In this document: piece after piece, positions 5,439 to 64,000 of the stretch
Layout of the letters: every line of letters begins with the position of its first letter
How positions within the stretch are numbered: position 1 is the stretch's first letter
IMG/VR virus record: IMGVR_UViG_3300031555_010338
From: a virus
Lineage: Duplodnaviria; Caudoviricetes
DNA length: 64,000 bases
Strand: one strand, 5' to 3'
Notes under the pieces: generated by a model
Database searches by the model: none
The model's input: only the letters and a program-made list of their open reading frames with translations
What the model was told of the DNA's origin: nothing
Program-made: the position numbers and the translations under genes

Positions 5439-6587
5439 TTAACCGAAAATGTCAACTTCGCCCTTGTCTTCGGGAGAGCTTACCCCGCCGAAAATATCAG
5501 GTGCGCTGTTCTGTTCATTGGTGTGTGCTTCTTTGTTCTTGCGTACCATTTCTACGCAAATCTTGCTGGTGATGCTATTCAACTCGACAGAGTTGGGGTC
5601 TGCCTTGAATGCGTCGATCTCTGCCTGTGCAAGAGCCTGTTCCTCAGCACTGAACTCAGACAGTGCAGAATTCAGCTCTGCCAGCTTCTTCTCCTTCTCC
5701 AGAGCGGCATTGGTATCCTTCAGACTATTCAGCTCAGTATTCTGTGCTTCGATGGTCTGATCCTTAGCCGCCACATCCGCCTGTGCTGCAGAAAGCTTCT
5801 CATTCAACTCAGCGATTTCTGCATCCTTAGCGGCCAACTGGCCGTTCAACTCAGAAATCTTACCCTCATACTCTTCGCTTTTATTGTTAAGCTCAGTAAT
5901 GGTCTGATTGACGGAAGTTTTCACAAGCTCGACGAACTGACCCATAATCTTTTCGTCCATAATTGTGTCCTCCTTGTTTTCTTCCAATTTATTATTTAAC
6001 TCCATGACGATTGCGGTATCATCTGCCGGTCTGATACCAAGAATGGCATATCCACTATAATCGTAGATTTGTGGTACTCTACCCTTCTCTTTCCAACCGC
6101 CATCGTAAATAATACGATTTTCGTATTCCGGACGACCAACAATTTCAACGCTGCCCTTAACGCCGTCCGTTTTCATCTTCTCTTGCAACCACGCAACAAA
6201 CTTCGGATATCGCATCTCATCGATATAGCCTTCAGCAACAAGAACCTTCTTTGTTTCGCCGTCGATTTCAACATCTGCGATGTAACCCTTTTCGCAATGA
6301 CCTACCACAGTTGCATCTTCCAAATACGGCATATTATCCCTAATCTCTGTCAGTCCGTGTCCATATGGCAGTCTGCGTTCTTCGCTCAAAAACTCAACGC
6401 ACAAGGACATGTTAGATACAGATTCAAGGTTCTGCGCTGTATAGGTTTCATCCCATGAGATACCGTTTGTTTGCCAGATATCACGGCTTGGATAGATCTC
6501 GTGCAAAATAAGCTTGATCTTTCTTCGGCCTGCAATCTGTCTGTCGTTCGAGAGTTCAAAAATGCGCCCCATAATTTCCTTGCTCAT
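5439..6587 (-). CDS. Prohead protease/scaffold protein
   Basis: Globular N-terminus plus long C-terminal coiled coil; between portal and capsid. Confidence 0.65.
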   Translation of the reverse strand: MSKEIMGRIFELSNDRQIAGRRKIKLILHEIYPSRDIWQTNGISWDETYTAQNLESVSNMSLCVEFLSEERRLPYGHGLTEIRDNMPYLEDATVVGHCEKGYIADVEIDGETKKVLVAEGYIDEMRYPKFVAWLQEKMKTDGVKGSVEIVGRPEYENRIIYDGGWKEKGRVPQIYDYSGYAILGIRPADDTAIVMELNNKLEENKEDTIMDEKIMGQFVELVKTSVNQTITELNNKSEEYEGKISELNGQLAAKDAEIAELNEKLSAAQADVAAKDQTIEAQNTELNSLKDTNAALEKEKKLAELNSALSEFSAEEQALAQAEIDAFKADPNSVELNSITSKICVEMVRKNKEAHTNEQNSAPDIFGGVSSPEDKGEVDIFG

Positions 6588-6599
6588 TCTCTCACCCCC

Positions 6600-8273: not shown

Positions 8274-10070
8274 TTAATTAAATAATGGTACATACTCATA
8301 CTCAGAGCTGTCAGAAAGCAAATCATGCTCCAACATCTGAGCAAAATAATTACCGTAAGAAACCGAAGTGTATCGGTCTTTACGGTCATTGTTGTTTATG
8401 ATCTTAATAAGTCCTGTCTGTTCACCGCGCTCATATTCCAAGTTAATCATCTCGTTAATCAGAGCTGCGGTTTCCAAATATGGACGCTCAAAGAAAAGCT
8501 GCGTATCCACATCCGCAGTTGCGTACTCAGGAATGAAGTTTGCAATCTCATCAACAGCCTCTGTATTGCTGATAAGCAGATCAATCATCCCAGAATTCAG
8601 TCCATTACGCATTGACTCAGCAATATTGCTGTTTGTCTCCAACTGAGCCTTGATAACATACACATTCTCTTCTGCGCCGGCAATTTGAATACGATTTGCA
8701 ACCTTATCGTCATTCATACATTTCCAGGGCTTATACTCTACATTACGCTCTTCATCAAACAAGACCTTCGCCAGCATGTCATAAACTGAAATACCAGCAT
8801 TTCGTCCGTCCAATACACAATAGTCTGCATTGAAGTCGGTATAGAGCTGCTTAATACGAATAGCCTGCTTGGTAGTCTCTCCGCCATGCACGGCTTCCAT
8901 ATAAACAATCTGTCTTCTATATCCACGCTTTACTTCGATATGCTCACCGGTAGTATCCATAACTTTGTACTCTTGGCTTTCTGGGAGCAAACGAATGCAC
9001 GAGAAAATGGAGTTATCTGTCGCATTACCGCCTTCCATAGCGATATCGCATGATAGGATACGGATTTCTCCAACTTGCTTTGGAATATCGTATTTGTTCC
9101 TTTGCTTCAAAAGCACCTCATCATTGCGACGAGGATAAAAAGCTCGTTTCAGTCTTCTATTGCGGTTCAACTGGTCATAGTTAAAGAACGATTTTGCATT
9201 TTCTGCAATCATCTGGTTCTCATACTCGATTGCCCAAGACATCGGATCGAGCTTCTTCCGCTCTTTAATCAAGAAGTTTCTCGTCTTAATGTTGTGCTTC
9301 AACGAAATACTGTAGTCCATTGCAATCACGCAAGAAGACTGATCGGTAAGCATATCCTTAACAAATCCACGAATCAGATTCCACATCCAATGGTTCTGAT
9401 ACCATGCAGAGCTGATATATACTTCCTTTGGCTCTTCTCTCATGTGTGCATACTCTTCGTATTTCAAGAAATCGGCCTGTCTGATATAAAGGAACGGAGA
9501 AAGAACACTATCAATAATGTTCTTAACGATCATACGGAACTCTTCGTAAATCATTACAGTAGCACGATAACCACGAGCATTTTCATTTGCAGCAACAACC
9601 ACAATAGAACTGCCGTTCTTAAATACAACCTCGATTTCATTCTGGTTATCCTTAAAACTATCGATCTCCGCTTCAAGCAATGGCGACTTTGGTATGAGTT
9701 CTTTTCTGATTTTCTCAGAAACAATAAGACGCGCCTGCTTTTTCGTTGCAGACGCGACAACAATCTTTGCACCAGGCCGCAGAATTGCTTCCTTACATGC
9801 AAACACAGCAATCAGGAATGACTTTGCTGCAGATCGAGCAGCAACAATACAAAAGCTTGGAAAAAACTCCATCAAATACAAAATCAAGTGCTGGTACAGA
9901 TGGAGTGTAATACCGAAATAGTGTTCCACAAACCTTGACGGGTTGCGTCTATAAAAAGTGATCCACAACATCAGCCGTTCAACATTTTCCCGTCTGCCCA
10001 AATAATGAGTGGAAGGATAATGCTCATGAATTTTCGCCTGACGCTCATCCATCAATTCTGCATAATTCAT
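8274..10070 (-). CDS. Terminase large subunit
   Basis: Walker A-like AARSAAKS, ARGYRA, Walker B IYEEF, nuclease SCDIA and KDRYTS motifs. Confidence 0.88.
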   Translation of the reverse strand: MNYAELMDERQAKIHEHYPSTHYLGRRENVERLMLWITFYRRNPSRFVEHYFGITLHLYQHLILYLMEFFPSFCIVAARSAAKSFLIAVFACKEAILRPGAKIVVASATKKQARLIVSEKIRKELIPKSPLLEAEIDSFKDNQNEIEVVFKNGSSIVVVAANENARGYRATVMIYEEFRMIVKNIIDSVLSPFLYIRQADFLKYEEYAHMREEPKEVYISSAWYQNHWMWNLIRGFVKDMLTDQSSCVIAMDYSISLKHNIKTRNFLIKERKKLDPMSWAIEYENQMIAENAKSFFNYDQLNRNRRLKRAFYPRRNDEVLLKQRNKYDIPKQVGEIRILSCDIAMEGGNATDNSIFSCIRLLPESQEYKVMDTTGEHIEVKRGYRRQIVYMEAVHGGETTKQAIRIKQLYTDFNADYCVLDGRNAGISVYDMLAKVLFDEERNVEYKPWKCMNDDKVANRIQIAGAEENVYVIKAQLETNSNIAESMRNGLNSGMIDLLISNTEAVDEIANFIPEYATADVDTQLFFERPYLETAALINEMINLEYERGEQTGLIKIINNNDRKDRYTSVSYGNYFAQMLEHDLLSDSSEYEYVPLFN

Positions 10071-11094: not shown

Positions 11095-11170
11095 TGGTGC
11101 GCCTGAAGGGAGTTGAACCCCCGACCATCGGCTTAAAAGGCCGCTACTCTACCAACTGAGTTACAGGCGC
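11095..11170 (-). tRNA. tRNA-Lys(TTT)
   Basis: Cloverleaf, loop CT-TTT-AA, CCA end. Confidence 0.93.
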
Positions 11171-11891: not shown

Positions 11892-12737
11892 TTAATTGCC
11901 GGTAGAATTTGAACCATTAACCGTGGCGTATGCTTTTACTGTATTTTTCAGCAATGCAACTCTGGTCATCAGGCCAACGCCGCCAGGAACCGGAGTAATC
12001 GCACTACACTTCTCGCTTACCGATGCAAAATCAACATCACCGCAAAGCTTACTATCTTCGCCTCTATTGATTCCAACATCCACAACAACCGCGCCATCCT
12101 TTACCATATCAGCCATAAGGAAACCAGGCTTCCCAACTGCACAAACGATAATATCTGCGTTTCGTGTGTAAGTAGAAATGTCTTTTGTTTTTGAATGACA
12201 TGTCGTTACAGTGCCACCCATACTGGTCAGCAATGCAGACATAGGTTTTCCAACAACATCACTTCTGCCGATCACAACACAATTCTTTCCCTCGACTTTA
12301 ATATCAAAGGCTTCCAGCAGATCAACAATACCAGAAGGTGTACACGGCATAAACGTCGGCCTACCAAGAACCAGCTTGCCAACACTCTCAGCCCTAAAGC
12401 AGTCCACATCTTTTTCTGGGTGGATATGCTCAATTACTGCGTTCTTGTCGATATGCTGCGGAAGAGGAAGCTGCACCAAAATACCGTCAACATCGTTTCG
12501 ATGATTTAGCGTCTGTACAGCGACAATTAAATCGCTTTGAGCTACTGTATCGTCAAAACGATATACACGGCAATCAATACCGCATTCCTCGCAATCCTTC
12601 TCCTTACCTCTGACATAAGCCTGAGAAGCAGGATTGTTACCTACCATGATTACGGCAAGCTTTGGTGGTCTTGCGAAGTTAGATATCGTTCTTCTTATTT
12701 TTTCTTTTTCTCTTGCGGCAACTTCCTTGCCGCTCAT
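11892..12737 (-). CDS. folD: Bifunctional methylenetetrahydrofolate dehydrogenase/cyclohydrolase
   Basis: GILVQLPLP, EKDVD, PCTP, VIGRSDVVGKP, ITPVPGGVG motifs. Confidence 0.95.
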   Translation of the reverse strand: MSGKEVAAREKEKIRRTISNFARPPKLAVIMVGNNPASQAYVRGKEKDCEECGIDCRVYRFDDTVAQSDLIVAVQTLNHRNDVDGILVQLPLPQHIDKNAVIEHIHPEKDVDCFRAESVGKLVLGRPTFMPCTPSGIVDLLEAFDIKVEGKNCVVIGRSDVVGKPMSALLTSMGGTVTTCHSKTKDISTYTRNADIIVCAVGKPGFLMADMVKDGAVVVDVGINRGEDSKLCGDVDFASVSEKCSAITPVPGGVGLMTRVALLKNTVKAYATVNGSNSTGN

Positions 12738-12949: not shown

Positions 12950-12969
12950 AAACATGGATGAAAGAAGAC

Positions 12970-13074
12970 AAGACACATAAGAAAGGGAGGTGAATGAAAG
13001 AAAGGAGCTGCTTATGGAGAAAGCACATTGTAAAAAACATAGTTTTGATTTTGTTATTTTGCTGTGTGTGTCTT
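12970..13074 (-). ncRNA. ACAGCAA-module RNA copy M2 with anti-SD-like loop
   Basis: AAGACAC-ACACAGCAA...GTGTCTT; loop contains TCACCTCCCTTTCT. Confidence 0.6.
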
Positions 13075-14282: not shown

Positions 14283-14399
14283 ATAAAAGAAGGAGCCTAA
14301 ACAGCGCCAACAATGCCTTACACATCGGCTGTCGCCATCCAATAGGAAGTCTCAGGGTTACTGGTTTGCTCCTTGGCCTACTAAAAACCCTTGTTCGGT

Positions 14400-14487
14400 T
14401 GGTGCTGGCGGTGGGACTTGAACCCACACGGTATTGCTACCAACGGATTTTGAGTCCGCCGCGTCTGCCGATTCCGACCACGCCAGC
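14400..14487 (-). tRNA. tRNA-Leu(CAA)
   Basis: CT-CAA-AA, long variable arm, CCA. Confidence 0.92.
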
Positions 14488-14495
14488 ATAAAAAC

Positions 14496-14562
14496 AGAGC
14501 GCCTTGTTTTGGTTGTATCAGTTAAAAGTTGATTCCAGAAAGAAAGTTGCTGTAAGCGCTCT
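14496..14562 (-). ncRNA. ACAGCAA-module RNA copy M3 carrying Lys(UUU) anticodon stem-loop mimic
   Basis: AGAGCGC-TTACAGCAA...ATCAA-CTTTTAA-CTGAT...GCGCTCT. Confidence 0.65.
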
Positions 14563-14566
14563 TGAA

Positions 14567-14653
14567 TGGTACAGGAGACAGGACTTGAACCTGCACGACC
14601 TTGCGGCCAATAGACTCTGAATCTACCGCGTCTGCCAATTCCGCCACACCTGC
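14567..14653 (-). tRNA. tRNA-Leu(CAG)
   Basis: TT-CAG-AG, long variable arm, CCA. Confidence 0.9.
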
Positions 14654-14659
14654 ATATTG

Positions 14660-14735
14660 TGGAGTAGATGACGAGACTTGAACTCGCAACAGCCAGCTTG
14701 GAAGGCTGGAACTCTACCAGTTGAGCTACATCTAC
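14660..14735 (-). tRNA. tRNA-Gly(TCC)
   Basis: CCAGC-CTTCCAA-GCTGG, T73, CCA. Confidence 0.92.
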
Positions 14736-15544: not shown

Positions 15545-15965
15545 TGGTGGAGTAGGCGGGAATCGAACCCGCGTCCGAAATTCCTACATGTACAAAACAT
15601 TCTTACGCAATAGTCGATAGTTTCTGCATTTACCGAATGGAAGGCTGCTTAGATGATCGACACAACAAATGCCCAGGGCGCACCGGTTTAGTGGCCTCCA
15701 CCACCTTGTTTCTTTTCACAGTGACAAGGAAAACTGCAATGCTGGCTGAATCATTATCCTCAGACGCTCACCCAACCAGAGGTGCGTCGTTTTGGTATCC
15801 GAACTGCTGTTAAGCAGCAACCCTCTCTGCCACACAAGCGGCCAGTGCAGGATGGATCATAACGAAAACTTCAGTGTTGTCATTTCATTTTTGTTTGAGC
15901 CGTAAGGAGGACTCATACCTGCGTGTTTTGCACTCTCAAAACCCCGTCGAACCCATTACTACCCC
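15545..15965 (-). ncRNA. ssrA: tmRNA
   Basis: 5' GGGGTAGTAATGGGTTCGACGGG; 3' GGACGCGGGTTCGATTCCCGCCTACTCCACCA with G3.U70; tag ORF DNTEVFVMIHPALAACVAERVAA*. Confidence 0.92.
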
Positions 15966-17130: not shown

Positions 17131-17766
17131 CCTTGAAAAATTCAATATCTCAATCACACTCATCATTCGGCCTTCGCCGTACCTCCATTACCTTCTTCCA
17201 ATCTTCTGCCACCAGGGAGACAAGTCTGAGCTTCGGGGAGCGACCCCTAACTTCTTGCCCCAGTCCCCGCCCTAAAAGAGCCGAACCACGAGTCCTGTGC
17301 GGGATTGTTTACCCGCAAATTTCACCGTTCGTTCAGAAATTGTTACTTTTACAATAACGCACCCAATTTGCATTATAGAAAGATCATCTTCTTCTCCGTC
17401 CTACGGCTACTTTAACCGGCGACTTTCGTTATAGCCGAATTTCTTCGACATCAAGACGGAAACGCATTGCTGGCTTTACCTCCGTCATTATGGCTGCCAC
17501 ACCATAACCCCATAGGCTTATTCTTCCACCGGAAGCGTCTATTGCTGCGCCCGAAAGTTCCGTGCATTTTGTAGCGATAACTCTTAGCACCACACATTTT
17601 TGTTGGCGGTTTCCGCCTCCCCACAATACATCGCTGCATCGCAGCCGCCCAGCAATAAAAGGTATCCCTCGTAAGCCAAACGGAAATTACTGCGTGTCTC
17701 TGAGTGCTGACGCACTTTGTTCACAGAGTTAATAATAAGCATGATTCAGATATTGAATTTTCAAGG
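17131..17766 (-). ncRNA. Large ornate ncRNA (ROOL/GOLLD-class candidate)
   Basis: ~635 nt closed by 19-20 bp terminal inverted repeat CCTTGAAAATTCAATATCT; many internal hairpins; no good ORF; among tRNAs. Confidence 0.65.
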
Positions 17767-20257: not shown

Positions 20258-23035
20258 TTAATTCTTATGACTTTGGTAATATCTGGCGTTTCGCTTAGCT
20301 CTTTTCTCCTTATCCCGCACATCTTGACAAGCGTCGCAGCGCTTCTTGTTCTTCACAATTCCATCGACCTCGAAATCCTTTCCGCAATCAATACAGCGAA
20401 TGGTCTTTTTGACAATAGGATGATAGACGGCGCAATTATTACAAAGCTTCTGCTGCGCAGTCATCGGAACAAAGCGCTCTCCGCATTTCTTACACTGGAT
20501 AGATCCATCTGGCAGATTATTCCGAAGGTTGGTCAAAACCATATCGCCAAAACACATCCAGAAAACATTTTTCCGTTTACTCTGTTTGGTGTGGAAAAGA
20601 TACTTTACGAGAACATCACATACATCCTTCATGTCGTACCCAAGAGCGGCGAATCGCTCCAAAATCATATCTCGCACATATGCAAGGTTTGTCATATCGT
20701 CATAGAAGCTGATTGCGTAACGATACTGTTTTTCGATTTCGTTATATAAGTCAACAACGTCCTGTAACATACTCACCTTCAAGGAAGGATTATTGAGCAT
20801 GTACTGATATCGAAAAACACCAATGTTCCTTGCAGAAAAGGACATACGCTTGTTTGGAACGATTGCTTCCAGACGGTTTACTGCACTGTAATTCAACCGC
20901 TGTACTCTGCCGCCATCCTTTTTCTTCGCATATACAAAGAAATGTGGGGCTTTCATGCTGGTAATTCTCGCCAGTCTTGCGTTTACATCGTCCGGACGAG
21001 TTGGCTTAAACAAAGTCTTCGCATAGTCAATACAGAAGTTGTTCTCCATACACAAGATCTTAATAGCGTCGATATCTACATCGTCGCTGTTCCAGATTTT
21101 CGTGATGTCGTTGCTGATAACACCGATATTGCCTCCAGTCCAGGCCGCACGAAGACCTTTGAATATCTCTTCATTTGTTATGGTGACAGCGCCGGCCTTT
21201 GCCATCTCATAATACAGAGGGACAATGCCTTCCATGTTTCGCTCCGCGATTTCTACCAAAAGACGATCCGCGCATACAAGGCTCTTATCTCCATCGCAGT
21301 CAAACTGCAAAATCTTTGAAATAAGATCATGACAACTCGTATAAATAGCGTTTGGAGTAAACCACTTTCTTGTCATTGGTGTAACGACATTACGCCGTAC
21401 TGCATGTTCTCTATACAAATGTGGCGAACGCAAACAATCCAGCTTCTCAATATTGCGATAAAGATAGCAAGATACCTCGCCATCAGCCAGCAAACCCTTT
21501 GGATCTCGATTACCAAGGAAAAGCCACTCGCAAAATGCGTACAAATCAGGAATTAAGAACATATACTTCGCAGACAAATCCAGCTTTGCTGCCTTTGCCT
21601 CTTGCACCAGGTTCTTTTTTATCTGTCGAAGCATTTCCTTTGTGTACGGATCAGAAAGAAGCTCTGGATAAATCTGCAAACACTCCTGAAAGGCATTTTT
21701 GTTTTTGAACTGAGAAGAAGCACCGAAAACATCAAGCATGGTTTCACGATCAGACGCGATCCTAACAATCTTGTCAACGGACTTCTCAGCAAGTGACTGC
21801 AGCTCTTCTTCCGTAATATCTGTCAGTGTCTGAAGCATCTGATAATTCAGCTTTGCGTCAGGAAGAAAGTCTTCTTCCTCATTGCACTTGCCAGCCGTGC
21901 ATCCATTTTCAAGATACATCGCAATATACTCATTCCAACTTTCGTAGTATTTGTACATCTTGAACTGGCTTTTAGTAAAAATTACCTCAATGCCCTCAGC
22001 AATGATATCATGCTCTTTCCCGTAAATATCCTTTACAACGCCATGGCTTACACTCGGATCGTTCTGATCTGCCTCTCTTATAAATCGGTCAAACGGGAAT
22101 ACCGCAAGAAGACCTTTTACCCAAGGCAAACGAACCATTGTGTTTTTGGGACAGCAGGTAGGTAGCACCATGCCGCACCCATCTGTATGTGTGATTGGGA
22201 TATCCATTTGCTTTCGCTCTGTCTGATATGTTCGGTGGTCAATAAAATCCACTGTGCCAGCAACCAATGTTTCCATATCATCGACTACGATAGACTTTTG
22301 AATATCAAAACCATCCCAAGGATCTGTTGCACTATTGCAAAGAGCAAGGTAAGCAAGATATTTATTGATGTTAATACCTCCGCGCTCATTGATGCTATCA
22401 ACTGTCAGGCCACACATCAGAGTTTTTTGATACTTCTCCCAAACCTTCTCTTTGATGAACACTGTTTTCTTTGTTCGGATCTGGCCGGCAGAAGCAGTAA
22501 AGCAAATATAACGCTCTCCGTTGTAGGTATATCCATTCAGAATCATATCTTCAATGACATCGAAGTAATATGTACGAATAACCATGAAATCGTCATACAG
22601 CTTGCCGGTTTGCATACCAAGGGTTCTTGTCAACATCGACTCAAACACAGAGATGATGTTCTTATCGATTACATACTCGCTTCTCAACTCTCTCGTCTCC
22701 CTATGTTTCTGCAACAGAGAAACAAGCTCATCCTTATACAGCTTCATCGCTGTATTTTTGCCCTTCAGCTCTTTGTTGATCTGGCGAATACGATCCTTGT
22801 CGCCTATTTCTACCTGCTCATCACGGCGAATCTTATACAGCGCACGATACTGAGACTGAGCCTTTTCGAGTGAAAGTCCGCCGTAGTGATAGCTTGATAG
22901 TATTTCCCGCTCTGCCTTCAACTTGTTCTTTTCGTTGCAGAGCTTGTTTATTTCAATCTCCAGCTTGCGCTCTTCGTCCGTATAAAACGCACTGGTATCA
23001 AAGCTGTAGATATGGATTTGCTTATCGAGACTTAT
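20258..23035 (-). CDS. YonO-like single-subunit (double-psi barrel) RNA polymerase
   Basis: Catalytic QFDCDGD, SAGQIRTKK, TDGCG, LRSPHL motifs; frame extends to ATA at 23035 with AAGGAGG RBS. Confidence 0.85.
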   Translation of the reverse strand: MSLDKQIHIYSFDTSAFYTDEERKLEIEINKLCNEKNKLKAEREILSSYHYGGLSLEKAQSQYRALYKIRRDEQVEIGDKDRIRQINKELKGKNTAMKLYKDELVSLLQKHRETRELRSEYVIDKNIISVFESMLTRTLGMQTGKLYDDFMVIRTYYFDVIEDMILNGYTYNGERYICFTASAGQIRTKKTVFIKEKVWEKYQKTLMCGLTVDSINERGGININKYLAYLALCNSATDPWDGFDIQKSIVVDDMETLVAGTVDFIDHRTYQTERKQMDIPITHTDGCGMVLPTCCPKNTMVRLPWVKGLLAVFPFDRFIREADQNDPSVSHGVVKDIYGKEHDIIAEGIEVIFTKSQFKMYKYYESWNEYIAMYLENGCTAGKCNEEEDFLPDAKLNYQMLQTLTDITEEELQSLAEKSVDKIVRIASDRETMLDVFGASSQFKNKNAFQECLQIYPELLSDPYTKEMLRQIKKNLVQEAKAAKLDLSAKYMFLIPDLYAFCEWLFLGNRDPKGLLADGEVSCYLYRNIEKLDCLRSPHLYREHAVRRNVVTPMTRKWFTPNAIYTSCHDLISKILQFDCDGDKSLVCADRLLVEIAERNMEGIVPLYYEMAKAGAVTITNEEIFKGLRAAWTGGNIGVISNDITKIWNSDDVDIDAIKILCMENNFCIDYAKTLFKPTRPDDVNARLARITSMKAPHFFVYAKKKDGGRVQRLNYSAVNRLEAIVPNKRMSFSARNIGVFRYQYMLNNPSLKVSMLQDVVDLYNEIEKQYRYAISFYDDMTNLAYVRDMILERFAALGYDMKDVCDVLVKYLFHTKQSKRKNVFWMCFGDMVLTNLRNNLPDGSIQCKKCGERFVPMTAQQKLCNNCAVYHPIVKKTIRCIDCGKDFEVDGIVKNKKRCDACQDVRDKEKRAKRNARYYQSHKN

Positions 23036-61889: not shown

Positions 61890-61914
61890 CATAGCCTAAA
61901 CAGGCATGGAAGTA

Positions 61915-61975
61915 ACGGCACTTACAGCAACTTTACTACACATAATTTGGGTTTATGATCGTGAAAATGTGCCGT
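61915..61975 (+). ncRNA. ACAGCAA-module RNA P1 with Pro(UGG) anticodon stem-loop mimic
   Basis: ACGGCAC-TTACAGCAA...CATAA-TTTGGGT-TTATG...GTGCCGT. Confidence 0.68.
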
Positions 61976-61996
61976 GTTGGAATACGAAATATAATA

Positions 61997-62053
61997 AAGG
62001 CGCTAACAGCAATGTTACAAAACATGGACTTGAAATCTATTCAAATGCGCCTT
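61997..62053 (+). ncRNA. ACAGCAA-module RNA P2 with Ser(UGA) anticodon stem-loop mimic
   Basis: AAGGCGC-TAACAGCAA...ATGGA-CTTGAAA-TCTAT...GCGCCTT. Confidence 0.68.
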
Positions 62054-62064
62054 GCAAAGAAAAT

Positions 62065-62157
62065 GGAGCAGTAAGCCTAACTGGTAAGATAGTCGCCTGC
62101 TAAGCGACGAGTAGCCGCGTAAGCGGTGTGCAGGTTCGAGTCCTGTCTGCTCCGCCA
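62065..62157 (+). tRNA. tRNA-Ser(GCT)
   Basis: GTCGC-CTGCTAA-GCGAC, long variable arm, GCCA. Confidence 0.88.
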
Positions 62158-62161
62158 TCAA

Positions 62162-62327
62162 GAGCAAGTAGGCAAAGAGAAAGCCTATTCATATCGACGA
62201 GCAATAACTGTAACACCTCCCTTTACTCACCATACATCCCCCTCCCTATCTCCTTTGTTCCCTGCTTCGTCGCATGAATACAAAATAGATTCGTCTATTG
62301 CATAGGAGCGTTGCCTATGCCTTGCTC
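62162..62327 (+). ncRNA. Structured RNA with large CU-rich (anti-SD-like) loop
   Basis: GAGCAAG-TAGGCAA/TTGCCTA-CTTGCTC outer stem; TATTCAT/ATGAATA and CGACGA-GCA/TGC-TCGTCG inner stems. Confidence 0.55.
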
Positions 62328-62340
62328 GATAAAAAAATCT

Positions 62341-62427
62341 GCTGGTGTGGTGGAATTGGCAGACACATCGGACTTAAGTTCCGATGCTCGTAAGGGCGTG
62401 TGGGTTCAAGTCCCACCGCCAGCACCA
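62341..62427 (+). tRNA. tRNA-Leu(TAA)
   Basis: TCGGA-CTTAAGT-TCCGA, long variable arm, CCA. Confidence 0.9.
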
Positions 62428-62432
62428 AACAC

Positions 62433-62546
62433 GGGAGCGTCTGGGCGGCAGCTTTTTACAGTGTATAGGACGGCGGACACTTACAGCAACTTTACAAAAA
62501 GAGTTATGGAAAAACTTAGCTTGCGGTTCGATTCCGCAGCTCCCCA
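62433..62546 (+). ncRNA. Degenerate tRNA-like RNA P3 with ACAGCAA insert (GGA loop)
   Basis: GGGAGC/GCTCCC-CA acceptor, T arm TGCGG-TTCGATT-CCGCA, GACAC-TTACAGCAA, GAGTT-ATGGAAA-AACTT. Confidence 0.55.
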
Positions 62547-62613
62547 AAGCCGTTAATTTTCTTCAAAGTCCGGTTAATTTTATTGGCAGTCGATGATAAG
62601 ACATAATAGACAT

Positions 62614-62732
62614 GCGGAAGTAGCTCAGTCGGTAGAGCAACAGTAAAAAAAATGTGTCGTGTATATGACGCACACAGCAATTTCAAATATGGGAACTGCG
62701 TGTCGGAGGTTCGAGTCCTCCCTTCCGCGCGA
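62614..62732 (+). ncRNA. tRNA-Pro(TGG)-like RNA P4 with 43-nt ACAGCAA insert
   Basis: Acceptor, D and T arms intact; insert TGTGTCG..TGACGCA-CACAGCAA in anticodon loop. Confidence 0.7.
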
Positions 62733-62736
62733 ATAT

Positions 62737-62855
62737 GCCAGGGTAGCTCAGTTGGATAGAGCGCGTAAATAACGCGACTTGTACAAGACGCTAACAGCAA
62801 TTTCTTTTGGTCTGTTAAACCCGTGGTCGTGGGTTCGAGTCCCACCCCTGGCGCA
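62737..62855 (+). ncRNA. tRNA-Asn(GTT)-like RNA P5 with 43-nt ACAGCAA insert
   Basis: Removing 62766-62808 gives perfect CGGGT-CTGTTAA-ACCCG arm. Confidence 0.75.
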
Positions 62856-62860
62856 TTTAT

Positions 62861-62977
62861 ACGGTGGTCGTCAAGTGGTAAGACAGCGGCCATATAAAAT
62901 GTGACCGTAAGGCTCACTAACAGCAAAGTTATGAAGCCAAGCCGCCACCGCAGGTTCGATTCCTGCCCACCGTTCCA
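62861..62977 (+). ncRNA. tRNA-Gly(GCC)-like RNA P6 with 43-nt ACAGCAA insert
   Basis: GCGGC/GCCGC stem, T73, CCA; insert GTGA-CC-GTAA-GG-CTCAC-TAACAGCAA. Confidence 0.72.
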
Positions 62978-63202
62978 CGGGGATAAGCTGACTTCGCCAT
63001 TCAAACAGCCCCTTATTAAACTGGTAGAAATGGCCTCTGGTACAGCAGAAGTAAAGAGGTATAGCCGGCGATGAGTCGTAGTAACCGGCGAGGTTAAGAG
63101 CTGACGCATGGGAACTGTAACTCCCTGGGCATCGTGAAAAGTCATCCACGGCCACACGGATGGTACGATGTACCGCTCCTGCATAGGTGCGCATATGCAA
63201 AT

Positions 63203-63277
63203 CGAGACACTTACAGCAACATTAAAGGTTAAAGTAGTTGGTAGCATTGCCGATGCGAGAAGGTTCAAGTCCTTCAC
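63203..63277 (+). ncRNA. ACAGCAA-module RNA P7 enclosing Gly(GCC) loop and T arm
   Basis: CGAGACAC-TTACAGCAA...GCA-TTGCCGA-TGC..GAAGG-TTCAAGT-CCTTC..GTGTCTCG. Confidence 0.65.
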
Positions 63278-63299
63278 TCGTGTCTCGTAAACCTCCTTT

Positions 63300-63405
63300 A
63301 AGACACCTGCAGCAAATAACAATGGGAGTCGTTTTAATTGGTAAAGACGGCTGGATACCAGTCATGCGGGTTCGAGTCCCGTCTTCTATTAAAATGGCGT
63401 GTCTT
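63300..63405 (+). ncRNA. ACAGCAA-module RNA P8 enclosing an anticodon-less tRNA
   Basis: AAGACAC-CTGCAGCAA...acceptor-like, D arm, GCTGG-ATA-CCAGT, T arm...GTGTCTT. Confidence 0.65.
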
Positions 63406-63462
63406 GGGGAATCGCGTTTCTTTTATTGGAATTAGCAAAACAATTTAAGGAGGAACTAAGAA

Positions 63463-64000
63463 ATGAGCAATTTTATGTCTGCGGTCAAGAACACTCTGAA
63501 CAATGAGTGTAACTACTCCATGACGGAGAATGGTGCGCTGGGCTATCGCACCACCGGCAAGGAGCTGTTGGATCTCAACTTTGCGGTTGCTTCTCTGCGC
63601 CGCGCAACTCCCAGCGAAATCGCAAACCGATTTACAAAGGCTTTCTTTGAGGACAAGATCGTTGCGATGAAGTGGCTGTTCTTCGCCCGTGATGTTCGTG
63701 GTGGCCTGGGTGAGCGCCGCCTGTTCAGAACCATCCTGTCTAATATGGCTCACACAAACCCCGAATACATCGTACCTCTGCTGGAACTCGTTCCTGAGTA
63801 TGGCCGCTACGATGATCTGTGGTGTCTGCTCGATACCGAGCTGCAGAAGGATGTTCTGGATGTGATTTCCAAGCAGCTTACCGAAGACATCCAGAACTTG
63901 AAGGAAGGCAAGGGTATTTCCCTGCTGGCAAAATGGCTTCCTTCTCCCAATGCTTCTTCTAAGACTACCAAGCGGTATGCCAAGAAGATTTACAAGCACA
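63463..64000 (+). CDS. DUF2828-family (TROVE/Ro60-like) protein, partial
   Basis: Manual translation MSNFMSAVK...TENGALGYRTTGKELLDL...LFFARDVRGGLGERRLFR...PEYGRYDDL...SLLAKWLPS; RBS AGGAGG. Confidence 0.8.
   Translation, partial: MSNFMSAVKNTLNNECNYSMTENGALGYRTTGKELLDLNFAVASLRRATPSEIANRFTKAFFEDKIVAMKWLFFARDVRGGLGERRLFRTILSNMAHTNPEYIVPLLELVPEYGRYDDLWCLLDTELQKDVLDVISKQLTEDIQNLKEGKGISLLAKWLPSPNASSKTTKRYAKKIYKH

Follow-up and report, generated by a model that had tools for sequence, protein, structure and literature searches.

Cleavage of tRNAs at the anticodon is a widespread bacterial defence, and the known answers of phages are repair enzymes and nuclease-resistant replacement tRNAs. The 3′ETS-leuZ RNA of E. 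coli is a sponge cut from a tRNA precursor spacer that base-pairs with small RNAs, and the thrS operator is a cis-acting mRNA element that mimics the anticodon arm of tRNA-Thr for a tRNA-recognising protein. YrlA-type Y RNAs, which occur with Ro60/Rsr and are also found in phages, join an effector domain that mimics tRNA to a terminal stem, to which a Ro60-type ring binds (PMC4201824). Among the nucleases, PARIS AriB has Lys(UUU), Thr(UGU) and Asn(GUU) tRNAs as its main published targets; AriB reads U36-A-A-U and requires D-loop contacts as well (PMC11464382; bioRxiv 10.1101/2025.02.04.636281).

The locus described here is part of a single 143.8-kb virus record, of which the 64,000-nt stretch that was analysed (the window) covers a portion. 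Coordinates are quoted on the plus strand; the module and the tRNAs are read on the minus strand. A minus-strand array at 11.1-18.0 kb holds 27 tRNA genes, a tmRNA and a ROOL RNA, and the gene of the terminase large subunit (TerL) is situated at 8274-10070. The ROOL RNA is full length (17149-17752, minus strand, 384 bits) and the tmRNA (15545-15965, minus strand) scores 98 bits. A complete FolD gene (methylene-tetrahydrofolate dehydrogenase/cyclohydrolase; 11892-12737, minus strand) is found in the middle of the tRNA array. The spacer between tRNA-Leu(CAG) and tRNA-Leu(CAA) is 79 nt long and is filled by an RNA module. On the tRNA strand the spacer consists of 4 nt, AGAGCGC, UU, ACAGCAA, a U-rich stretch, UGG-A, the hairpin, an A/C-rich linker, GCGCUCU, G and 7 nt. 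The features of the locus, together with the distant genes that enter the comparison, are as follows.

14567-14653, minus strand: tRNA-Leu(CAG), the upstream neighbour, whose CCA end is 4 nt before the module
14495-14562, minus strand: the whole RNA module, 68 nt, made up of a handle and a Lys-type anticodon-arm look-alike
14556-14562, minus strand: 5′ strand of the closing stem P1, AGAGCGC, with its partner at 14496-14502
14554-14555, minus strand: UU spacer after P1
14547-14553, minus strand: ACAGCAA motif, 2 nt 3′ of P1, 99% column identity
14535-14537, minus strand: UGG, possibly the 5′ half of a 3-bp helix P3, for which a CCA, UCA or UUA partner is available in 18 of 20 orthologs
14529-14533, minus strand: hairpin 5′ strand AUCAA, tRNA positions 27-31 by analogy, 95% conserved
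14522-14528, minus strand: 7-nt loop CUUUUAA, the same as the anticodon loop of tRNA-Lys(UUU)
14517-14521, minus strand: hairpin 3′ strand CUGAU, whose first C lies opposite A as a mismatch
14510-14512, minus strand: CCA in the A/C-rich linker, possible 3′ strand of P3
14496-14502, minus strand: P1 3′ strand GCGCUCU, which pairs with AGAGCGC
14495, minus strand: unpaired G 3′ of P1, present in 20 of 20 orthologs and in 9 of 9 stand-alone modules of the window
14400-14487, minus strand: tRNA-Leu(CAA), the downstream neighbour, 8 nt past P1 and 7 nt past the unpaired G
11095-11170, minus strand: the real tRNA-Lys(UUU) of the phage, with an identical loop and an unrelated G+C-rich stem, GCGGC/GCCGA
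63463-64000, plus strand: start of the DUF2828/DUF7788 gene (Pfam), which codes for 505 aa and extends past the end of the window

An earlier, sequence-only reading had described ATCAA-CTTTTAA-CTGAT as a hairpin inside AGAGCGC/GCGCTCT of an ACAGCAA module and had equated its loop with that of the tRNA-Lys(TTT) gene at 11095. The minus-strand sequence matches this description and the two CUUUUAA loops are identical. AUCAA-CUUUUAA-CUGAU has the layout of an anticodon arm, namely a 5-bp stem, a 7-nt loop, U33 and a purine at position 37; since the loop-closing pair is an A.C mismatch, only four of the hairpin pairs form in this copy. The module scores 82 bits under a covariance model trained on its 20 orthologs. 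No promoter- or terminator-like site was found within 14300-14700. The module and its neighbours share a strand, the gaps between them are 4 and 8 nt, and they are separated by nothing resembling a promoter or terminator; they are therefore almost certainly carried on one transcript, which supports the co-transcription with the tRNA operon that the earlier reading had proposed.

A search of Rfam showed no family at gathering score for the module, the only match being a weak one to RF01414, and GenBank phages yielded no close relative, with matches to tRNAs only. The module is not a tRNA (RF00005): the D and T arms of the cloverleaf are absent. For the acceptor, the 7-bp stem and an invariant G are present and CCA is unencoded. 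Neither is it a YrlA-type Y RNA (RF02553), for its 68 nt contain no GNCGAA motif and no T-arm or D-arm look-alikes, and no RF02553 match was obtained at the module locus. The likeness to YrlA (RF02553; Chen et al. 2014) is one of organization, i.e. a modular RNA present in several copies that adjoin a protein gene, with the protein having a Ro60 fold. The handle here consists of a stem, NN and ACAGCAA in place of the GNCGAA Ro-binding motif, and the cargo is an anticodon arm, whereas that of YrlA is a T arm plus a D arm. YrlA genes are found less than 4 kb from the Ro60 gene and on the same strand. This is true of eight sister modules and of a Lys-type module in L145, a contig of another phage, but not of the present module, which is on the opposite strand at a distance of about 49 kb. 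The earlier reading had given 47 kb for this distance; the start of the DUF2828 gene at 63463 gives about 49 kb.

The partner protein also differs from that of YrlA in that DUF2828 is not recognisable as Ro60 by sequence, and a sequence search of the DUF2828 protein against solved structures gave no match. A structural model (pLDDT 75), in contrast to the sequence search, gave 12 best solved-structure matches that are all Ro60/TROVE proteins, over the full length and with E-values of 1e-8 to 3e-5. Thus the DUF2828 protein, as modelled, folds like Ro60, and by analogy with the Y RNAs it is the probable partner of the handle. In the way it would work, the module comes closest to a Y RNA, its cargo being the unusual part.

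The weak Rfam match is to the dictyostelid Class I RNAs (RF01414; Kjellin et al. 2021, PMC7919456), which are multi-copy RNAs of about 60 nt, as compared with 68 nt for the module. Both have a covarying short terminal stem and a variable remainder. Directly after the 5′ strand the Class I RNAs carry the motif CCUUACAGCAA; the module has GCUUACAGCAA at this place, and 10 of 11 positions match. The Class I ends are 5′ AAG and 3′ C-U-G-U, those of the module AAG and CUCUGU. A handle stem followed by CUUACAGCAA, an AAG start and a CUCUGU end together form a close resemblance to Class I RNA. However, the module reaches only 21.4 bits in Rfam, where the gathering score is 41.5, and the match is limited to this module, as the sister modules at 61900-63420 fail an E-value of 10. 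Class I RNAs have their own DUSE promoter about 60 nt upstream in a dictyostelid genome, whereas the module is situated in a phage tRNA operon, 4 nt after a tRNA. They are known from social amoebae and thought to be unique to them, whereas the module belongs to a phage and thus to another domain of life, and neither hairpins of the anticodon type nor a Ro60-like partner protein are known for them.

Similarity to the remaining systems is found in the cargo or in the origin of the RNA. The T5 tRNA-Lys, tRNA-Thr and tRNA-Asn that meet PARIS AriB share with the module family the same three loops, the U36-A-A-U site and a location in a phage tRNA cluster, but the T5 tRNAs are complete, functional, cleavage-resistant replacements for cleaved host tRNAs (PMC11464382; bioRxiv 10.1101/2025.02.04.636281). 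As the module has no D or T arm, it could act only as bait and not as a replacement tRNA. Like 3′ETS-leuZ, the module would be a functional RNA cut from a tRNA precursor, which for the module is a proposal, but the sponge acts by pairing with small RNAs. Like the thrS operator it is an anticodon-arm look-alike, but the operator acts in cis. Both of these lack a shared handle and a Ro60-like partner.

The window contains two hairpins that have a CUUUUAA loop and form 4 or more of the 5 pairs, one in the module and one in the real tRNA-Lys, where a Markov null gives 0.33 ± 0.54 per window. With two against an expected 0.33 the window alone cannot decide on chance, and the fold of the single spacer sequence is mildly better than that of its shuffles (z = −1.98). 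A search of public viral contigs with TerL gave 77 loci, and in about 45 of these the same module is found directly upstream of tRNA-Leu(CAA). It is absent at the tRNA-Leu(CAA) site in two relatives, L015 and L036. Twenty distinct syntenic copies, from phages whose TerL sequences are 65-91% identical, were aligned. Covariation supports both helices: for P1, which pairs in 100% of cells, there are 5 covarying pairs, and for the hairpin, which pairs in 84% of cells, there are 2. Slid-partner controls are all below 37% paired. The G.U pairs in P1 are compatible with the tRNA strand only. Column identity is 0.99 for ACAGCAA, 0.96 for UGGA, 0.96 for the loop and 0.95 for the hairpin 5′ strand, and is lower in the closing stem (0.82) and the linkers (0.57-0.73). 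The sequence-only reading had listed an unconserved loop among the outcomes that would speak against it, and the loop proved to be 96% conserved over the 20 orthologs. Thus the module is a conserved RNA element consisting of a handle and an anticodon-arm look-alike.

The hairpin itself is weak. The loop-closing pair is A-U in 9 of 20 orthologs and unpaired in 11, and RNAalifold predicts P1 but does not recover the hairpin, which shows that the hairpin is weak on its own. This weakness counts against a purely structural reading. When G.U and compensated variants are included, UGG can pair in 18 of 20 orthologs with a CCA that follows the hairpin after 3-4 nt, and a short extension helix P3 beyond the hairpin is therefore possible. 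In one relative, L059, the hairpin stem is AUAGA/UCUAU, with two compensatory pairs and the Lys loop kept. An independent Lys-type module (1436-1495) with the stem UCGA/UCGA and a 5-bp equivalent of P3 is found in L250, which is a second phage-like contig from a Treponema bin. In L145 the handle and linkers differ, yet the hairpin sequence is identical, stem included. A chance hairpin in an A+T-rich spacer would be consistent with the window count, where one extra hairpin is not significant, and with the failure of RNAalifold to predict it; however, the conservation and covariation over 20 distinct orthologs and the independent recurrence in L145 and L250 refute this explanation, and we give it practically no credence. 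A D stem formed between ACAG and CUGG was also considered, but its 3′ partner shows no conservation and the idea was dropped.

The loop varies in a restricted way. The equivalents of U33, U36, A37 and A38 are invariant in the 20 orthologs and changes are confined to positions 32, 34 and 35. The loop is CUGUUAA (Asn GUU) in L039 and L060, and UUUGUAA (Thr UGU) in L072 and the L010 group. These are the loops of real tRNAs in the same set of phages. CUUUUAA is found in almost every tRNA-Lys(UUU), the exception being that of L059, CUGUUAA in every listed tRNA-Asn(GUU), and UUUGUAA is the commonest tRNA-Thr(UGU) loop, in which U32 also accompanies UGU. The probability that random substitution turns the Lys loop into a common real loop is 0.24 for a single change and 0.08 for a double one, jointly about 0.02. 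That the swaps land on real anticodon loops is suggestive and not proof. Loop-proximal stem pairs can also follow the tRNA, as in the modules of L059 and L250 three such pairs are those of the tRNA-Lys of the same phage. In L059 the tRNA-Lys(UUU) of the phage (L059:4725) has C for U at loop position 33, giving CCUUUAA, while the module (6538-6599) keeps the canonical loop together with the three loop-proximal pairs of that tRNA-Lys. The presence of escape-type tRNA-Lys genes in phages with a Lys-type module is a lead only, as the numbers are small and some of the phage tRNA-Lys are Treponemataceae-like.

The handle is not restricted to this spacer. A 7-bp stem, NN, ACAGCAA, a variable interior, the partner strand and G are common to about 13 RNAs of the phage. 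ACAGCAA occurs 27 times in the window, compared with 11.5 expected, and is clustered in the tRNA regions. The nine stand-alone modules of the window follow one design, with GCAGCAA replacing ACAGCAA in the copy at 63300-63406, and eight modules (61915-63406) are found directly upstream of the DUF2828 gene. The fetched loci together yielded 124 distinct stand-alone modules, which fall into 44 clusters. The hairpin loop is a real anticodon loop in 8 of the 44 clusters (Lys, Pro UGG, Ser UGA, Met CAU, Gln UUG and Thr UGU are represented), as against 0.40 ± 0.64 for shuffled interiors, and other modules of the family carry T arms. The Lys look-alike is thus one case of a general design in which a handle displays pieces of tRNA.

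The window also contains three tandem tRNA genes on the plus strand (62614-62730, 62737-62854 and 62861-62977) that have the module element within them. Their acceptor, D and T arms are intact and they score 45-50 bits with the Rfam tRNA model. The anticodon arm of each is longer by about 35-45 nt, which carry a hairpin followed by NN-ACAGCAA. ARAGORN detects these genes only when introns are allowed, and two of the three have no encoded CCA.

The arrangement in L145 (L145:4180-7802), a contig of an uncultured Treponema bin, brings the parts together. Six or seven ACAGCAA modules, several of them with T arms, are followed by the DUF2828/DUF7788 gene, a minimal 40-nt module, the Lys-type module and an RNA ligase gene. 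The ligase has a PHA02142 OB domain and an RNA_ligase domain and belongs to phrog_968. A phrog_968 RNA ligase is also present in the phage studied here, about 10 kb past the end of the window (G000:C1:105695-107101, the same as L312:514-1920), and is followed by a nucleotidyltransferase-like gene (phrog_388). RtcB was not found in this phage genome. A 438-aa metallophosphoesterase adjoining the array was considered as Pnkp, but it is an SbcD/Mre11-like exonuclease.

These observations may be combined as follows. The 68-nt spacer RNA would be freed by processing of the flanking tRNAs, and its handle would bind the Ro60-like DUF2828 protein of the phage, by analogy with the Y RNAs. The cargo hairpin appears to copy the anticodon arm of ANN-reading tRNAs, Lys UUU in this phage and Asn GUU or Thr UGU in relatives, and would most likely mimic it as a competitive decoy, or bait, aimed at some protein by which this anticodon loop is recognised. 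The best candidate for that protein would be an anticodon nuclease of the host that resembles PrrC or PARIS AriB, and the decoy would spare tRNAs needed in phage translation, perhaps with the help of the Ro60-like protein and the RNA ligase. The release of the RNA, the binding of the handle and the decoy action are what we infer from the structure and the genomic links. That the RNA baits or diverts an anticodon nuclease of the host is rated the most likely reading, tentatively held, and the anti-defence decoy that the earlier reading had inferred is to this extent plausible. It is ranked first because the Lys, Asn and Thr loops of the locus are the main AriB target set and because the cargo switches between specific anticodons; the UAAU that AriB reads is present in 9 of 20 orthologs. 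A fuller version is possible and distinctly less secure: the Ro60-like DUF2828 ring would read the conserved handle, exchangeable anticodon-arm baits would be swapped between Lys, Asn and Thr in an arms race with nucleases, and the linked ligase would reseal nicked baits or tRNAs.

Several results bear on the decoy reading from the other side. The module has no D arm, which counts against an AriB decoy, and the thermodynamic weakness of the hairpin counts against a decoy in general, as does the lack of a match between the module stem and the tRNA-Lys of this phage. The Treponemataceae, the family of the only bacterial bin that holds such phage contigs, were compared; their tRNA-Lys(UUU) (23/26 genomes searched) has a G+C-rich stem unlike that of the module. 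An exact scan for the 17-nt hairpin in one genome per bacterial and archaeal species gave scattered matches, and of 80 loci read none was in a tRNA gene and one was another module. Mimicry of a host stem was accordingly rejected, no readable tRNA-Lys with the stem of the module being found in the phage itself, the Treponemataceae or the 80 scan loci. The tRNA-Lys of the phage-bearing bin itself was looked for and not found, and, of 201 Treponemataceae genomes searched, the other 200 showed no TerL relative. The cargo loops of the wider family represent many tRNA species, Ser and Met included, which suggests a role broader than defeating one nuclease.

The main rival to the decoy is an adaptor of the Y RNA kind, in which the handle would sit on the Ro60-like ring and the anticodon arm would recruit an enzyme that acts on anticodon arms, e.g. 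the phrog_968 ligase. The resulting particle would serve tRNA repair or quality control, and a parallel exists in Deinococcus, where Rsr is tethered to PNPase by a Y RNA. Such an adaptor is in keeping with the Ro60 fold of the DUF2828 model, with the eight modules directly upstream of its gene in the window, and with the order in L145, where the Lys-type module has the Ro60-like gene on one side and the RNA ligase gene on the other. Published Y RNAs likewise combine a protein-binding stem with a tRNA-like effector domain, and in jumbo phages the combination of Ro/TROVE and a tRNA-like partner is seen as a platform for RNA repair. However, it is not obvious why an adaptor for one general enzyme should need loops specific to an anticodon and switching among Lys, Asn and Thr, and the present copy is 49 kb from the protein gene and on the other strand. 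The adaptor is possible, though we consider it unlikely. Less likely again is a relic of tRNA, i.e. a hairpin from a tRNA-Lys gene that was captured by or fused to the ACAGCAA element, with a loop that has no target of its own, and that would now be no more than a structured spacer aiding the processing or stability of the polycistronic tRNA transcript. The fixed position directly upstream of tRNA-Leu(CAA), the three tRNA genes of the window that have the same element inside the anticodon arm, the loop-proximal pairs that some module hairpins share with the tRNA-Lys of their own phage, and the absence of the module from the site in L015 and L036 would all suit this origin. But a relic would not be expected to conserve its loop and hairpin 5′ strand nearly as well as ACAGCAA and better than P1, nor to show covarying stems, and the changes in the loop reach other canonical loops with no sign of drift.

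A minimal armless tRNA, CCA-tailed, charged with lysine and used in translation, is disfavoured and must be called highly improbable. The 7-bp terminal stem, the one unpaired base and the 5-bp/7-nt anticodon-arm look-alike are what such a molecule would show, but both the D arm and the T arm are absent. A 96-nt search gave no Rfam tRNA match up to an E-value of 10, and ARAGORN made no sense-strand call under bacterial, intron, mitochondrial or 70% settings. CCA is unencoded, whereas the listed canonical tRNAs of the phage encode it. Furthermore, modules with different cargo anticodons share one stem pattern and the 3′ G, so that no acceptor identity is carried.

If the decoy reading is true, an RNA that displays only the target anticodon arm would be a third phage answer to anticodon cleavage, as decoy or bait. 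The natural Lys/Asn/Thr swaps at one locus would then give direct access to nuclease specificity. The module also adds a defined type of cargo to an undescribed Y-RNA-like family, the partner of which would be a Ro60-shaped DUF2828 protein that is present in eukaryotes too. Under the fuller version given above, the likeness of the handle to that of the dictyostelid Class I RNAs would point to a shared principle of protein-RNA recognition.

Two further elements on the minus strand of the window deserve mention. The module at 12969-13074 and its relatives (L003:7888 and L004:7780) have a C/U-rich interior in which ACCUCCCUUUCU is conserved. ACCUCCCUUUCU resembles the 3′ end of 16S rRNA (the anti-Shine-Dalgarno region), and this interior could be another look-alike of a translation RNA, or it could be complementary to a ribosome-binding site of the opposite strand. 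An 887-aa open reading frame (20258-22921) matches PF05183, the cellular-type RNA-dependent RNA polymerase, with an E-value of 1e-13, and may be a single-subunit RNA polymerase of the YonO/crAss-like type.
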